DNA of 42,961 nt from a virus (Duplodnaviria > Heunggongvirae > Uroviricota > Caudoviricetes). The notes under the pieces were generated by a model. The model was not told the DNA's origin. It was given only the letters and a program-made list of their open reading frames with translations, and searched no databases. Positions within the stretch are counted from its first letter, which is position 1. Every line of letters starts with the position of its first letter. Made by a program: the position numbers and the translations under genes. Location: the IMG/VR virus record IMGVR_UViG_2531839476_000018. One strand, given 5' to 3'. This document shows, one piece after another, positions 34,348-39,437 of this stretch.

Positions 34348-34542
34348 TCACTCAGGAATCTTAATCTTTCTCAATTCTTTATTTAGTTCACAGATCTTTT
34401 TCTTAGACGGGAAAGTATCATACATCCAAAAACCAACAGTCTCTAAAACTATTATCATAACCATATACACAAGATAATTTAAAAGGCCTTCATTTTGCCC
34501 TATGGAAATAATGCAGATAATAGAAAAAAGGGTAAACAGCAC
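34348..34542 (-). CDS. AT-rich island 1, distal ORF (membrane protein fragment); possibly the frameshifted C-terminal part of one gene
   Basis: 64-aa hydrophobic ORF overlapping the upstream ORF in another frame across an A6/T6 homopolymer (34524-34529). Confidence 0.4.
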   Translation of the reverse strand: MLFTLFSIICIISIGQNEGLLNYLVYMVMIIVLETVGFWMYDTFPSKKKICELNKELRKIKIPE

Positions 34543-34976
34543 AAAACACAGAAAGGAAAACAGACGACTAATAATAAATAAAAAACCTGAAAAATCAACA
34601 TTAATAAAAACACTCCGTTATCTTTCTCTATATAATTCTGAAGCTTAATCAACTGATTTATATACTGTCTTTTTTCTAATCTATTGCAAATGTAAATAAC
34701 ATCTCTTCGGTTATAAGATGATTGCAATTTCAGCGCATCACGAATAATTTTATCATTTATTCTTTTTTCTATGGCACTCTTATCCTCCTCATCCAGATAA
34801 CGTTCATACTTAACTAAATATAAAATTAACTTCTTAACATATTTAGGCTCTTTATACTTATAATTAAAAATGATCTTTCTTATCCAGACTCCCATAACAA
34901 TCAAACATGAAAAAATATATCCAGCTATTTTCTCCAGATGCTCTGTATGGTCAATCAAGTATTGGATCATATGCAT
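34500..34976 (-). CDS. AT-rich island 1, proximal ORF: membrane protein of unknown function (cargo, antisense to the early operon)
   Basis: 158 aa with an N-terminal TM helix, a charged middle and a hydrophobic C-terminus; flanking intergenic DNA and the gene are visibly more AT-rich than neighbouring genes. Confidence 0.5.
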   Translation of the reverse strand: MHMIQYLIDHTEHLEKIAGYIFSCLIVMGVWIRKIIFNYKYKEPKYVKKLILYLVKYERYLDEEDKSAIEKRINDKIIRDALKLQSSYNRRDVIYICNRLEKRQYINQLIKLQNYIEKDNGVFLLMLIFQVFYLLLVVCFPFCVLCCLPFFLLSALFP

Positions 34977-35022: not shown

Positions 35023-37086
35023 ATGTCCAATATACTATGGGGCGACCTGGAAACCTATTGCGAAATCCCTATTACGAACGGTACCCATGCGTATGCCGAA
35101 GGCGTTGAAGTGATGCTTTTCGCATGGGCTATCAACGACGGGCCAGTAAACGTGTGGGATATCACTGCCGGTGGTGGTATTCCACACGGCTTATACGAAG
35201 CAATCGCAGACCCTGAAACCCTGCTTTATTTCCATAACTCTCACTTCGACCGCACCGTTCTGCGTTATGCAATGCCGCGCCTGGCACCGCCAGTCGAACG
35301 TTGGCGCGACACAATGGTGCAGGCGCTGGCGCACGGCCTCCCGGGGTCTCTGGGGGAACTCTGCGAAATACTCGGCGTCCCGCAAGACAAAGCGAAGGAC
35401 AAAGAAGGTAAAGCGCTGATCCAGCTGTTCTGTAAGCCACGCCCGAAAAACAGCAAACTGCGTCGGGCCACCAGTAAAACCCACCCGGAAGAATGGCGGC
35501 GCTTTGTTGCTTACGCCGGACTGGATATCGAGGCAATGCGCGAAGTCTATAAACGTCTGCCGAAGTGGAATTATCAGGGGACAGAACTGGCGCTCTGGCA
35601 TCGTGATCAGCAGATCAACGACCGGGGCGTCTGCATGGACATTCAACTCGCGCGCGCTGCGATCGAAGCGGTAGACCAGGAGCAAAAGCGCCTGGCAAAG
35701 CGTACACAGGAAATGACTGATGGCGAAGTGCAGGCAGCCACACAACGAGACGCGTTGATTAAGCACATTGTTGAATCCTACGGTGTGGAGCTACCAGACA
35801 TGCAACGCAGTACTCTGGAACGTCGTATTGCCGACCCCGATTTACCATCTGCCGTGAAAGAACTGCTGGCTATCCGCCTGCAGGCCAGTACTACCAGCAC
35901 CAGTAAATACAAGGCACTGATGAAAGGCGTAAGCCACGACGGGCGCTTACGCGGTACGCTACAGTTCTGCGGGGCGTCACGTACCGGTCGTTGGGCCGGA
36001 CGGCTATTCCAGCCCCAGAACCTTCCCCGCCCTTCACTAAAACAGGAACAAATAGACGAAGGCATCGAAGCACTGAAAGCCGGATGTGCAGACCTGCTGT
36101 TTGACAATATCATGGAACTAACCAGTTCAGCGTTACGTGGCTGCATTATCGCGCCAACAGGCAAAAAGCTGGTGGTAAGTGACTTGTCGAACATTGAAGG
36201 CCGTATGCTGGCATGGCTGGCGGGAGAAGAATGGAAACTGAATGCATTCAGAGAGTACGACGCCGGAACGGGTCCGGACTTATATAAACTGGCGTATGCA
36301 AAAGCTTTCGATATTGCACCAGATGATGTTGATAAACACATGCGTCAGATCGGTAAAGTCATGGAACTCGGTCTGGGTTATGGTGGTGGTGTGTCGGCCT
36401 TCATCACTTTTGCACTGGTTTACGGTCTCGATCTCGACGAGCTGGCGAACGCCGCACTACCAAACATTCCCCGCGATGTTATCCGCGAGGCGAAAAGCTG
36501 GTACGACGAATCGGTTAAACGCAAGTCAACCTACGGGCTTTCTGAACGGGTATTTATCGCCTGCGACTCACTTAAACGTCTCTGGCGCCGGGCGCATCCC
36601 GCGACCTGTGATTTCTGGTACGAACTGGAGCGCACCGTCCGCACTGCAATCGCCACACCGCAAAAAACATTGTATTGCGGTTATCTTAAAATCCGCCGCG
36701 ATGGCGCGTGGCTGCGCATACAGCTACCATCCGGACGCGCTGTATGCTACCCGTCTCCGGTTATCGAAAAAGGGAATATCACCTACATGGGGGTTAACTC
36801 TTATTCGCGTAAATGGCAACGACTCAAAACCTACGGCGGAAAGCTGGTGGAGAACATCACCCAGGCGGCCGCCCGCGACATTCTGGCCGGAAACATGCCG
36901 CTTATCGAAGATGCCGGTTACAGCATTGTGCTGACGGTACACGACGAGGTGATCACCGAAGCACCTGACACAGAAGATTTCAACGATAAAGCGCTTTCCG
37001 CGCTTCTCTCCACTGACCCCGAATGGGCGCCCGATATCCCACTGAACGCTGGCGGTTTTGAGGCGTACCACTACAAAAAAGATTGA
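35023..37086 (+). CDS. Family A DNA polymerase (phage type, with N-terminal 3'-5' exonuclease-like domain)
   Basis: 687 aa; polymerase motifs recognisable: motif A-like [15 protein letters not shown], motif B-like [16 protein letters not shown], motif C LTVHDEV. Confidence 0.85.
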
Positions 37087-37150
37087 TATAACTCACCTTA
37101 TCGAGCTATGGCGACATGCTGAATTCGAGTAAATTAAAGGAACAATACTT

Positions 37151-37912
37151 ATGCAGGAACTAACTGAAATGCCGATCACCTATCCATACCCGAGAGAAAC
37201 TTTTCCTGACTTTTTGAGGGAGTGTGGGTTCACCAATTTTTCCCACGAACAGCGTGAGACTTGTGACTGCTATCGTTTAACGAATGGCGTAATTGTTAAC
37301 CTTTACACCACCCGGACCATTCAGTTTCAAGGTAACCCTCAAGAACGTCCCAATGTTGAAACTGCAATAATGACCCATTTAGGAACGCCGCCCACGGCAA
37401 CACCACTAGCCGTAGAACAGCCATCTGAGCTCCCCAAAAAGATATTCATTGTTCACGGCCATGACCATACTGCAAAGGAGCAACTTGAGCTAATCCTTCA
37501 TAAACTTGGATTACCAGACCATTTCATTTTGCAGAATACGGGAGGGACTGGACTCACCATTATTGAAGAGCTTGAACGTGAAATTGGGCAAGGACAAACT
37601 GCTACCCGTTTCGGGATTGTTCTTTTGACACCTGATGATATGGGATACTCAAAGCGCGCCGGTGAAGCAGAAATCCAACCCCGCGCAAGACAGAACGTTG
37701 TACTCGAGATGGGTATGCTTCTTTCGTCCTTAGGGCGCAGCAATGTAGCAATCCTTCAGAAACAGCACCTAGAACAGCCTTCTGATGCTAACGGGATTTT
37801 GTATCTGAATTTCAACGACCATGTACGTGAAACAGTTCCTCGTCTAGTGCAACGGTTACAAAATTCTGGTTTCGAATTTACACAAGCTCAAATAGCTAAC
37901 GCTTCCTCGTAA
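37151..37912 (+). CDS. Hypothetical protein with a C-terminal TIR-like / nucleoside-deoxyribosyltransferase-like motif set; candidate defence effector
   Basis: 253 aa; residues about 100-250 contain KIFIVHGHDHTAKEQLELIL … GIVLLTPDD … NVVLEMGML, resembling TIR-like (COG4271-type) domains as recalled; unknown N-terminal 95 aa; AAGGA ribosome-binding site; own terminator. Confidence 0.4.
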   Translation: MQELTEMPITYPYPRETFPDFLRECGFTNFSHEQRETCDCYRLTNGVIVNLYTTRTIQFQGNPQERPNVETAIMTHLGTPPTATPLAVEQPSELPKKIFIVHGHDHTAKEQLELILHKLGLPDHFILQNTGGTGLTIIEELEREIGQGQTATRFGIVLLTPDDMGYSKRAGEAEIQPRARQNVVLEMGMLLSSLGRSNVAILQKQHLEQPSDANGILYLNFNDHVRETVPRLVQRLQNSGFEFTQAQIANASS

Positions 37913-37935
37913 TTACCCCTTATTGTTGATTACAA

Positions 37936-37960
37936 CCCTGCATCGCGGGGTTTTTTATTT
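37936..37960 (+). terminator. Intrinsic terminator after the TIR-like gene
   Basis: ccctgc-atc-gcgggg stem (one G-U pair) followed by TTTTTTATTT. Confidence 0.55.
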
Positions 37961-37975
37961 GGGAATAAAAACCCT

Positions 37976-38110
37976 ATGTCATTTAAATACCGGGACAGTC
38001 CGCTTTATTACCGGACTGTGCGGGAGGCTTTGCACCTTGAACAGTCCGGCGGGTACGACCGGGCGATGCAGGTCTGGGCCAAAGCGAACGTCGGTTTGAT
38101 TTTTGTCTGA
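37976..38110 (+). CDS. Possible small ORF (44 aa)
   Basis: ATG at 37976, stop TGA at 38108-38110; weak ribosome-binding site; not in the ORF track (under 60 aa). Confidence 0.2.
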   Translation: MSFKYRDSPLYYRTVREALHLEQSGGYDRAMQVWAKANVGLIFV

Positions 38111-38146
38111 TGCAGAACATGCGCGAAAAGCGTAAGGAGGTGGACG

Positions 38147-38341
38147 ATGTCTAATATCGATAATAAGGGTTGGGGGTTCCCCGCTCTGTCAAAAAAAGCA
38201 CATTTCTTTAATTCGGGGGAAGCCATATCACTATGCGGAAAATGGATGTTCATAGGTATCAGGATTGATGAATGGCATGACCATCCTGAGAACTGCGCTA
38301 TCTGCATGAAGAAACGCAAAAAGCAGGAAGGCGAAAGCTAA
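38147..38341 (+). CDS. Small Cys-rich protein
   Basis: 64 aa with C…C…CAIC; stop overlaps the VRR-NUC start. Confidence 0.4.
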   Translation: MSNIDNKGWGFPALSKKAHFFNSGEAISLCGKWMFIGIRIDEWHDHPENCAICMKKRKKQEGES

Positions 38342-38628
38342 TGGCCTATGAACGTGAAAACCTAATCGAAAAGCACCTCGTCGCTGAAGTAAAAAAGGCT
38401 GGCGGGGTTGCCTTTAAGTTCGTATCCCCCGGTCGCCGCTCGGTACCAGATCGCATTGTTCTGCTACCCGGCGGTCGTATCATTTTCGTTGAATGTAAAT
38501 CCCCCGGCAAGCCACCACGGCCTGACCAGTTGCGCGAACACGGACGGTTGCGCGCGCTGGGCTTTACCGTAGTGGTGCTGGATAGCAAAAATCTGGAGGC
38601 CATTATTTTAAGCCGCAATAAAGGATAA
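38341..38628 (+). CDS. VRR-NUC domain nuclease
   Basis: 95 aa with PDRIVLLPGGRIIFVECK (PD…(D/E)xK core) as recalled for VRR-NUC. Confidence 0.7.
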   Translation: MAYERENLIEKHLVAEVKKAGGVAFKFVSPGRRSVPDRIVLLPGGRIIFVECKSPGKPPRPDQLREHGRLRALGFTVVVLDSKNLEAIILSRNKG

Positions 38629-38640
38629 AAGACTTATGCT

Positions 38641-39273
38641 TTAATCCGTATTTTTAACACGTATTTCGAAACACCCTTTTAATTTAGCTATTTCCTTTTT
38701 AGAGGACATGATTGTGAATCTCATCCCTTTTAAATCATTAACAAATTCAAATTTTGCGCTATTTGACTCACAATCACCAACAACAAAACCACTACCAAAT
38801 GAATTGAGCAACACTTTAGTATTACTACCATCTACCATATAATATTCGTTATTTTTAAATGCAGTAACCTTCCCGAATGTATAGCTCAATATCAACAACG
38901 TTATCACCCCTAAAGGAAAAGCTGACTTTAGGATTTTTAAATCGATATAATAAAATACGTTCTTATACTCTGCAAGCCTCCCAAATTTTCTAATGCTCTC
39001 CATATGATGTTCGTGTCTCTTACTATGGATTGGCATGGACACCACATTGTGATAATTCAACAAAAGCATAGCAAATAATAAAATATCCTGAACACTCATC
39101 ACAGAAGTTTCGGAGAAATAACCAAAAGGCCAATGAAATCCTATTATACAAATATTAGCCATTAGCATAACAACTATAAATACAATAAATGGAACATAAT
39201 ATTTCCCTTTCAAATCAAACATCAACGCCGCATATAAGGCGCCGAGAAATAAAAAACTAAAAACAAAAGCCAC
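38641..39273 (-). CDS. AT-rich island 2, distal ORF: polytopic membrane protein of unknown function (cargo, antisense)
   Basis: 210 aa with several TM helices followed by a soluble C-terminal domain; AT-rich. Confidence 0.5.
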   Translation of the reverse strand: MAFVFSFLFLGALYAALMFDLKGKYYVPFIVFIVVMLMANICIIGFHWPFGYFSETSVMSVQDILLFAMLLLNYHNVVSMPIHSKRHEHHMESIRKFGRLAEYKNVFYYIDLKILKSAFPLGVITLLILSYTFGKVTAFKNNEYYMVDGSNTKVLLNSFGSGFVVGDCESNSAKFEFVNDLKGMRFTIMSSKKEIAKLKGCFEIRVKNTD

Positions 39274-39437
39274 ACAGCCGAATACAATAGCGTATTTAAG
39301 TCTATTTTAATAAAAAGGTCTGGATAGCCATAATACGATGCAACACCTTTCTGAAAAGAATATGCCATCGCATAAGCTAACGCTGAAAACATAGTTAATA
39401 AAGAAACTTGCTTTGTAAATATTTTCGCCAGGGGCAT
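39222..39437 (-). CDS. AT-rich island 2, proximal ORF (membrane protein fragment); possibly the frameshifted N-terminal part of one gene
   Basis: 71-aa hydrophobic ORF overlapping the 210-aa ORF in another frame across A/T homopolymer runs (39247-39269). Confidence 0.4.
   Translation of the reverse strand: MPLAKIFTKQVSLLTMFSALAYAMAYSFQKGVASYYGYPDLFIKIDLNTLLYSAVWLLFLVFYFSAPYMRR

Follow-up and report, generated by a model that had tools for sequence, protein, structure and literature searches.

Why does the replication module of a temperate Escherichia coli phage carry a gene for a TIR-domain protein, and what would such a protein do there? We addressed this question in the 42,961-nt stretch of DNA deposited as IMG/VR virus record IMGVR_UViG_2531839476_000018 (hereafter, the window), an almost complete temperate E. 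coli prophage in which a 253-amino-acid (aa) open reading frame (ORF) follows the gene for a family-A DNA polymerase (polA). The reading that we favour, with a probability of roughly 0.6, is that the TIR gene is optional temperate-phage cargo encoding a one-protein sensor-effector system of abortive infection. We prefer it because it brings together a TIR domain predicted to be catalytic, a full-length match to the PADLOC family PDC-S35, an accessory cassette, the defence contexts of the family, a modular N-terminal domain (N-domain) and the unequal divergence of the two domains.

The ORF is uninterrupted and starts with ATG, an alternative start codon being possible at M7, and its product is named 'TIR domain-containing protein' in RefSeq. 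An earlier, sequence-only reading of the window had described a 253-aa ORF with its own ribosome-binding site and its own intrinsic terminator, located between the family-A polymerase and the VRR-NUC gene, and had taken the segments FIVHGHD, LLTPDD and VVLEMG for marks of a TIR-like domain, with the glutamate of VVLEMG as the catalytic candidate. This description was borne out on every point: the position, length and ribosome-binding site of the ORF are evident from the sequence, a terminator scan recovered a hairpin followed by a T-run, and the domain, the motifs and the glutamate were each recognized by independent comparisons. Thus, Pfam family PF10137 (CAP12/Pycsar effector TIR) matched aa 97-222 over profile positions 1-118 of 119, with 108.4 bits against a cut-off of 24.7 (E=2.9e-31); it was the only family matched in the Pfam scan of the window protein, which did not return the ThsB-type TIR model, and it also matched all 40 aligned relatives. 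In the AlphaFold2 model of the protein (mean predicted local distance difference test score, pLDDT, 77), the top Foldseek matches of the TIR domain were the TIR-STING structures 9lmq and 7un8, followed by SPARTA TIR-APAZ, SpbK (9phb_A) and SARM1. Furthermore, the model has a beta-hairpin (strands 163-165 and 176-178) that is placed after the third core strand and before alphaC and coincides with the CC-loop insertion site of SfSTING, a feature typical of the CAP12/Pycsar clade.

The three motifs (FIVHGHD at residues 99-105, LLTPDD at 158-163 and VVLEMG at 183-188) fall on invariant or nearly invariant columns of the 40-sequence family alignment. In the family profile, R180-Q-N182-V-V-L-E186 aligned to SfSTING R78-D-N80-V-V-F-E84 and P-S-D212 to SfSTING P-T-D110 (native numbering, to which the 7un8 chain numbering adds 8), which sets E186 of VVLEMG opposite the glutamate of SfSTING NVVFEFG. 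In SfSTING, the NAD+ pocket includes R78 and N80, the catalytic glutamate is E84, and D110 acts in trans, on the active site of the neighbouring subunit (PMC9402430). Across the 84 species-level members on which our neighbour and conservation counts are based, F99, H104, D105, R180, E186, P210 and D212 were invariant (84/84), and N182 was conserved in 83. By alignment, the TIR domain retains in full the active site with which TIR-STING hydrolyses NAD+, the trans-acting aspartate included; NAD+ hydrolysis by the window protein is predicted, and the choice of the VVLEMG glutamate as the catalytic residue is correct by homology. Comparison with a second E. coli allele gave dN/dS values of 0.03 for the TIR part and 0.23 for the N-domain, synonymous sites being saturated; judged from its codons, the gene is real and under purifying selection.

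The N-terminal 95 aa, which the sequence-only reading had left unassigned, can now be assigned to a TBP-like fold. Residues 8-78 formed a compact domain (pLDDT ~91) both in the full-length AlphaFold2 model and when modelled alone, in which a short strand at the N terminus precedes an alpha-beta4-alpha half-TBP core that could be superposed on RNase H3 and RnlA; the linker that joins this domain to the TIR domain varies from 9 to 31 aa across the family. When the N-domain profile was compared with the sequences of the PDB, RNase HIII and LsoA ranked first, at an E value of only ~0.2, and all three have in common a strand-turn-strand (beta3-turn-beta4) motif, Y/H-x-x-TG-x-h-Q-h-QG, which lines up with RnlA residues 148-169. 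The fold search also matched KA1, AMPK and Mediator, and gave no match at E<=0.001 among viral structures. On the models, the N-domain has a TBP-like fold whose nearest relatives are the TBP domains of RNase H3 and RnlA/LsoA. These relatives bind RNA/DNA hybrids or RNA: the TBP-like N-domain of RNase H3 binds an RNA/DNA hybrid, and RnlA needs its first TBP domain in order to bind its substrate (PMC3710099, PMC8266594).

The two domains have diverged to very different extents. Mean pairwise identity among the species-level members was 32% for the N-domain versus 67% for the TIR domain, and mean identity to the window protein was 22% versus 65%. Similarly, the two E. coli alleles (alleles 1 and 2) are 49% identical in the N-domain versus 89% in the TIR domain, with a rate of nonsynonymous substitution (dN) five times higher in the N-domain. 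A basic residue is nevertheless found at N-domain position 42 in 74 of the 84 members.

An exhaustive profile search with the N-domain alone returned 844 representative proteins, and most of those listed were fragments or had the TIR architecture. In P0238 (617 aa), the N-domain is combined with a region that matches the PADLOC dCTP-deaminase defence model (7e-173) and Pfam dCMP_cyt_deam_1, in P0220 (428 aa) with a multi-pass membrane region, and in P0253 (297 aa) with a domain without family assignment, whereas P0148 contains two tandem copies of the N-domain, like RnlA. The occurrence of one sensor-like module on several effectors is the usual mark of sensor-effector immunity, as seen in CBASS, Avs and Schlafen systems, and by this analogy the N-domain would be a swappable sensor module. 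Fusions of TBP-like domains to Schlafen nucleases have been listed (PMC13056530).

The PADLOC PDC-S35 model PDLC05003 matched the window protein nearly end to end (E=6.8e-109; aa 10-253, profile positions 3-245 of 245), and four more PDC-S35 models matched it at 1.9e-56 to 7.9e-43; the protein also belongs to PHROG 16442, the function of which is not annotated. The homologues recovered number about 2,700 and hardly vary in length. When one genome per GTDB species was scanned for a pattern, 247 loci were confirmed, and the 80 loci kept for the phylum listing came from Proteobacteria, Acidobacteriota, Verrucomicrobiota, Chloroflexota, Bacteroidota, Planctomycetota, Cyanobacteria, Campylobacterota, Spirochaetota, Actinomycetota, Firmicutes and one archaeal bin. 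The distribution is thus patchy and mobile, over more than 10 phyla. Among 50,697 deposited phage genomes, the family was found in only 3-4, namely, three induced phages of E. coli and a distant match from Salmonella, and none of the matches was to a known virulent phage.

Outside of phages, members of the family were found on an integrase/TrwC element of Vibrio cholerae, beside an SMC-like ATPase; on an island where an integrase is accompanied by Mrr, a TPR protein and PemK; on an island of Vreelandella that holds DUF4062, a reverse transcriptase, and modules of the ParDE and Phd/YoeB types; and on two conjugative elements. Type I restriction-modification genes recur among the neighbours. The gene had been taken to stand alone, and indeed all-against-all clustering of the ORFs within 2.5 kb revealed no partner gene in most of the 84 loci, and no cyclase, CD-NTase or ThsA-type gene is present near the window TIR gene, whose neighbours are polA, the ANR gene and the VRR-NUC gene. 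A conserved small upstream ORF, seen in two loci, was dropped after neighbour clustering of the 84 loci failed to recover it.

The commonest neighbour was an RNase HI gene, located directly downstream on the same strand, with its start overlapping the TIR stop, in 9 of the 84 loci. These loci belong to Dehalococcoidia, Vicinamibacterales (Acidobacteriota) and two Verrucomicrobiota, that is, to 3 phyla; one of the two Verrucomicrobiota loci is on a conjugative element, and a rough neighbour-joining tree places the coupled members in no fewer than three separate positions. No RNase H gene is present in the window. The loci with both genes may represent a two-gene variant of the system. Although the RNase HI link is a minority feature, it is notable that it points to RNA:DNA hybrids independently of the fold of the N-domain.

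Over the 2.2 kb surrounding the TIR gene, the window is 100% identical to the corresponding region of E. coli FDAARGOS_1059 and 99.8% identical to that of IAI1, in which the prophage adjoins yfhL and has a tyrosine integrase at the end of the element; the window TIR protein differs from the IAI1 copy by 1 amino acid. Three induced phages (vB_EcoM-689R2, -611R5 and -606R2) are 95.6% identical across the same region. Alignment to related prophages with an empty slot delimited a cassette of 893 bp that holds the TIR gene. On the left, homology to the empty prophages ends after ...CACTAC at 37074, within the last codons of polA, and on the right, it resumes at the ribosome-binding site and ATG of the ANR gene, near 37968; in the empty form, the ANR gene begins 6 nt after polA. 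The GC content of the cassette is 0.445-0.47, versus 0.50-0.575 in polA. Among 5,426 complete E. coli genomes, of which 158 have a related polA region, the TIR gene occupies the polA slot in 47 (37 with allele 1 and 10 with allele 2), and it is absent or replaced in about 70% of the related E. coli prophages. The cassette thus shows traits of a moron, namely, presence/absence polymorphism with sharp boundaries, and a terminator of its own.

The slot has other occupants as well. In one prophage (L008 2095-3123, minus strand), it holds a gene for a HATPase_c (GHKL) protein of 341 aa that PADLOC matches weakly (1.9e-08) to the N-terminal part of DrmA, and in another (L009 2173-3239, plus strand), a hypothetical gene and a YfbU-family gene. 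Because PADLOC and Pfam recovered only this weak DrmA-like match among the alternative occupants, the polA-ANR slot is not a proven defence hotspot. In a Salmonella relative (L097 4567-5301, Logan SRR28794106), the TIR gene lies upstream of polA, in another slot of the module, in the order Enc34 single-stranded DNA-binding protein, Nmad5, TIR gene, DUF2335, Bro-N, polA.

A Shine-Dalgarno sequence, AAGGA, at 37137-37141 is placed 9 nt 5' of the TIR ATG. A sigma-70 consensus scan found no site upstream of the TIR gene in the window, and inspection by eye gave weak candidates only. Five diverged alleles (L028, L029, L030, L031 and L048) share TTGCTG-17-TATTTT/TAATTT just upstream of the Shine-Dalgarno sequence; the -35-like TTGCTG is absent from the leader of the window allele. 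At the 3' side of the cassette, the terminator scan identified a stem of 8 pairs, 5 of them G-C, at 37934-37952, followed by TTTTATTTGG. With a fold energy of -13.4 kcal/mol and a modest z-score of -1.74 against shuffled sequences, this hairpin is canonical in form and by itself statistically unremarkable. However, a homologous hairpin with the same T-run is present at the 3' side of the second TIR allele in other prophages, which suggests that the terminator belongs to the cassette. An Rfam scan of the whole window returned no match, and thus there is no sign of a small-RNA or riboswitch partner; the dCTP deaminase DcdV has a small-RNA regulator.

Several observations weigh against the favoured reading or parts of it. 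The TIR gene is co-oriented with the replication genes, and the window allele is without a convincing sigma-70 promoter, for which reason the expression of the TIR protein in the lysogen is something that we infer. The adjacency of polA and the TIR gene is kept in phages whose polA is only 73-77% identical, and in these diverged phages of the IMG/VR viral collection the order is polA-TIR-VRR-NUC-SNF2. Because this order persists next to a diverged polA, the TIR family is a recurrent tenant of the slot, and the adjacency may be a hint of a function linked to the lytic programme. With respect to the N-domain, PF15935 (RnlA_toxin) scored only 13.4 bits on the window protein, against a cut-off of 27, and hhalign of the N-domain profile with E. 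coli RnlA gave a probability of 6% over 22 columns, so that this match is a motif-level observation rather than a proof of homology. Among the 40 relatives, PF15935 matched 11, weakly (best E=8.5e-4), and PF11858 (DUF3378, the RNase HIII N-domain) matched 1. Because all these sequence tests stayed under the family thresholds, we call the N-domain TBP-like, and not a member of PF15935 or PF11858. Moreover, the N-domain is neutral to acidic (net charge -4 in the window protein, family mean -1.2), so that strong nucleic-acid binding is not favoured, and its fast divergence is easier to reconcile with a protein as the ligand than with a generic nucleic-acid structure. Finally, we found no paper that names, describes or tests PDC-S35, in a search that left most subscription journals outside.

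Under the favoured reading, the protein would be made in the lysogen and would be inactive as separate molecules. Upon infection by another phage, the N-domains would bind a multivalent ligand and so bring several copies together; the clustered TIR domains would pack side by side, with D212 completing the active site of the neighbour in trans, NAD+ would be hydrolysed, and the infected cell would cease to support phage growth. Our first choice of ligand is a repetitive nucleic-acid structure, for example, an RNA:DNA hybrid, with a multimeric phage protein being about equally possible. A nucleic acid is favoured by the kinship of the N-domain, by the neighbouring RNase HI genes and by the precedent of SPARTA, whereas the neutral to acidic charge of the N-domain and its rapid divergence, more usual in an arms race against a phage protein, disfavour it.

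The alternative that survives best retains the architecture and the defence role, and has the N-domain recognize a multimeric phage protein, such as a capsid, portal or replication protein. We consider it possible, if well short of likely. It would account for the fast evolution and the charge of the N-domain; it has a precedent in SpbK, the TIR domain of which is activated by clustering on the portal protein YonE; and TBP-like folds double as protein-binding modules, in line with the KA1, AMPK and Mediator matches. It agrees less well with the nearest relatives of the N-domain being TBP domains that bind nucleic acids, those of RNase H3, RnlA and LsoA, with the recurrent, translationally coupled RNase HI neighbour, and with the conserved basic residue at position 42.

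A more specific form of the sensor-effector reading, which we offer tentatively and hold to be rather unlikely as it stands, is that the TBP-like domain is a structure-specific RNA:DNA hybrid sensor coupled to TIR filament assembly, with RNase HI as a safety catch. R-loops and primer or replication intermediates would accumulate when a phage replicates or disables the host RNase H, and many copies of the protein, aligned on one hybrid, would form an active TIR NADase filament. In the lineages that have it, the co-translated RNase HI would clear the cell's own hybrids, and the same sensor would drive the dCTP-deaminase and membrane effectors.

Very improbable, in our view, is a weapon of the lytic phase, be it a counter-defence enzyme that breaks down NAD-derived immune signals or an NADase for host shutoff or competitor exclusion that is expressed together with the replication genes. 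Such a role would suit a gene located directly downstream of polA in the same orientation, without a clear promoter in the window allele and with an adjacency to polA that is kept across diverged phages. However, most family members reside outside phages, and the only matches among the phage records were 3 induced temperate phages and 1 distant relative, with no known virulent phage; the TIR domain belongs to a clade of NAD-depleting effectors, and its trans-completed active site is typical of switch-like activation; a dCTP-deaminase defence effector carries the same sensor domain; and most of the related prophages do without the gene. Of the two functions that the sequence-only reading had considered plausible, the single-gene sensor-effector is thus supported by the full-length PDC-S35 match, the defence-island and mobile contexts and the swappable N-domain, whereas the counter-defence enzyme is disfavoured by a family that is mostly non-viral. 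Least credible of all is a replication accessory factor, with the N-domain binding primer or R-loop hybrids at the fork and the TIR fold being non-catalytic or nucleotide-binding: the place of the gene in the replication module, between polA and VRR-NUC, the likeness of the N-domain to a hybrid-binding domain and the RNase HI neighbour in some lineages would fit, but the gene is no core replication factor, the case that the sequence-only reading had set against itself, being lost or replaced in most closely related prophages (with ANR then 6 nt after polA), it takes a different slot in the Salmonella relative, the family is widespread outside phages, and the NADase catalytic residues are all invariant, so that a non-catalytic TIR module is not expected.

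The positions of the features are given in Table 1. Two AT-rich (27-33% GC) minus-strand accessory genes with hydrophobic products interrupt the replication operon, one at 34348-34976 (-), between DUF2815 and polA, and the other at 38641-39437 (-), between VRR-NUC and SNF2; neither gave a Pfam or PADLOC match. Deletions of 1 nt relative to IAI1, near 34605 and 39258, split their 209-aa and 265-aa ORFs and represent either real decay or homopolymer sequencing errors. In other prophages, the slot of the second gene is occupied differently (by DUF6338, by a cytosine methyltransferase and by other genes). The ANR gene, at 37976-38154, is a pseudogene with a 40-nt deletion compared to prophages L011 and L012, and the IAI1 copy is flagged as frameshifted in RefSeq. 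In many related prophages, a DUF4406 gene lies between ANR and VRR-NUC (e.g., L010 2305-2604); its position is taken by a 64-aa ORF in the window and by DUF7446 in other prophages. We take DUF4406 to adopt a fold like that of nucleoside 2-deoxyribosyltransferases, which falls into one broad class with TIR.

Table 1. Coordinates of the TIR gene, its domains and signals, and adjacent features in the window; the last row lists RNase HI genes of other loci.
Feature	Position	Strand	Basis or remark
Family-A DNA polymerase gene (polA)	35023..37086		upstream of the TIR ORF
Accessory cassette (moron) holding the TIR gene, 893 bp	37075..37967	+	alignment to empty prophages L010 and L012
Intergenic leader	37087..37150	+	AAGGA Shine-Dalgarno; weak -10-like TAAATT at 37130-37135; read from sequence
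253-aa ORF: TBP-like putative sensor domain, linker, CAP12-type TIR	37151..37912	+	PADLOC PDLC05003, phrog_16442
N-terminal TBP-like domain, putative sensor, aa 8-78	37172..37384	+	
Disordered linker, aa 79-96	37385..37438	+	pLDDT <50 for residues 80-92
CAP12/Pycsar-type TIR domain, aa 97-253	37439..37909	+	PF10137, Foldseek
Active-site stretch R180-Q-N182-V-V-L-E186	37688..37708	+	E186 codon GAG at 37706-37708
D212 codon	37784..37786	+	counterpart of trans-acting SfSTING D110
Intrinsic-terminator-like hairpin and T-run	37934..37961	+	terminator scan, folding; closes the cassette
ANR-family regulator remnant, frameshifted	from 37976		downstream of the TIR ORF
64-aa hypothetical ORF	38147..38341		between the ANR remnant and VRR-NUC
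VRR-NUC gene	38341..38628		downstream
RNase HI genes	L104 6732-7256, L144 3652-4182, L170 6696-7181; also L157, L164, L166, L168, L171, L172		

The TIR call itself is already known from RefSeq and GenBank, and the family is catalogued by PADLOC. Within the searchable literature, the TBP-like, RNase-H3-like identity of the sensor, its reuse on dCTP-deaminase and membrane effectors, the coupling to RNase HI and the cassette slot are new: searches for TBP-like domains together with TIR, for the RefSeq accession and for the PHROG number returned no description of this architecture, most subscription journals lying outside their reach. To our knowledge, single-protein TIR immune switches such as SpbK are established, and for most of them the trigger that is sensed is unknown. 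The present family occurs widely, in no fewer than 247 species from more than 10 phyla and in ~0.9% of the complete E. coli genomes, and its protein is small (~250 aa), with a clearly delimited and apparently swappable sensor, the nearest relatives of which bind RNA/DNA hybrids. If hybrid sensing were true, it would define a new class of bacterial immune receptors that sense nucleic-acid structure independently of a guide; if it fails, the locus would still be a clean case of defence cargo swapped at a fixed slot in a prophage replication operon. In either case, the annotation 'TIR domain-containing protein' can be replaced with a putative two-domain sensor-effector with named catalytic residues.

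Among the known systems, the closest is PDC-S35, a single-gene candidate of PADLOC-DB v2, of which the window protein is an ordinary member by the full-length match to the profile hidden Markov model; PDC-S35 is a bioinformatic candidate only, and no description of its domains was found in the literature searched. The TIR domain is of the same PF10137 clade as Cap12/TIR-STING (SfSTING, 7UN8) and PycTIR, with R180, N182, E186 and D212 in place of R78, N80, E84 and D110 and with the CC-loop hairpin, and the side-by-side TIR packing of TIR-STING is, by analogy, probably common to the window protein. TIR-STING proteins are activated by oligomerisation into TIR filaments (PMC9402430). Unlike Cap12 and PycTIR, the window protein has no STING or cyclic-nucleotide-binding domain, the TBP-like N-domain being the putative sensor. 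Membership in the corresponding systems was considered and rejected. For CBASS, the NCBIfam Cap12 models, which have a cut-off of 450 bits, scored 34.8 and 30.5, on the TIR part only, and there is no CD-NTase; for Pycsar, the PADLOC PycTIR match (E=1e-08) covers only aa 132-234, and there is no adjacent cyclase gene; and for Thoeris, there is no ThsB-type TIR match, no adjacent ThsA-type gene and no recurrent effector-like neighbour in the 84 loci.

SpbK, from the Bacillus subtilis element ICEBs1, is likewise a single protein of a mobile element with a C-terminal TIR NADase; it differs in the TIR clade, in the N-terminal domain and in that its trigger is known. SpbK is activated by clustering on the dodecameric phage portal protein YonE (PMC12847820). 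The TIR-APAZ chains of SPARTA are among the structural matches of the window TIR domain, and this system is the precedent for hybrid sensing. In SPARTA, a TIR NADase is switched on by oligomerisation driven by an RNA:DNA heteroduplex; it differs, however, in consisting of two proteins with a guide-dependent Argonaute, whereas the window protein is without Argonaute or APAZ and would sense structure rather than sequence. RnlA/LsoA and RNase H3 have the TBP-like fold and the beta3-turn-beta4 motif in common with the window N-domain. RnlA and LsoA are anti-phage proteins, and they carry a HEPN RNase, as RNase H3 carries an RNase H catalytic domain, where the effector of the window protein is a TIR domain. 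Beyond bacteria, TirB and TirD of Dictyostelium contain a PF10137-type TIR domain acquired from bacteria and are reported to bear, tethered by a disordered linker at the N terminus, a small domain 'resembling a partial KH domain' (bioRxiv 10.64898/2026.04.30.722052). By analogy, the TBP-like-TIR architecture could recur in TirB and TirD, in which case the gene would have been transferred as a whole, and if the family does sense hybrids, it might be the ancestor of their small N-terminal domain.

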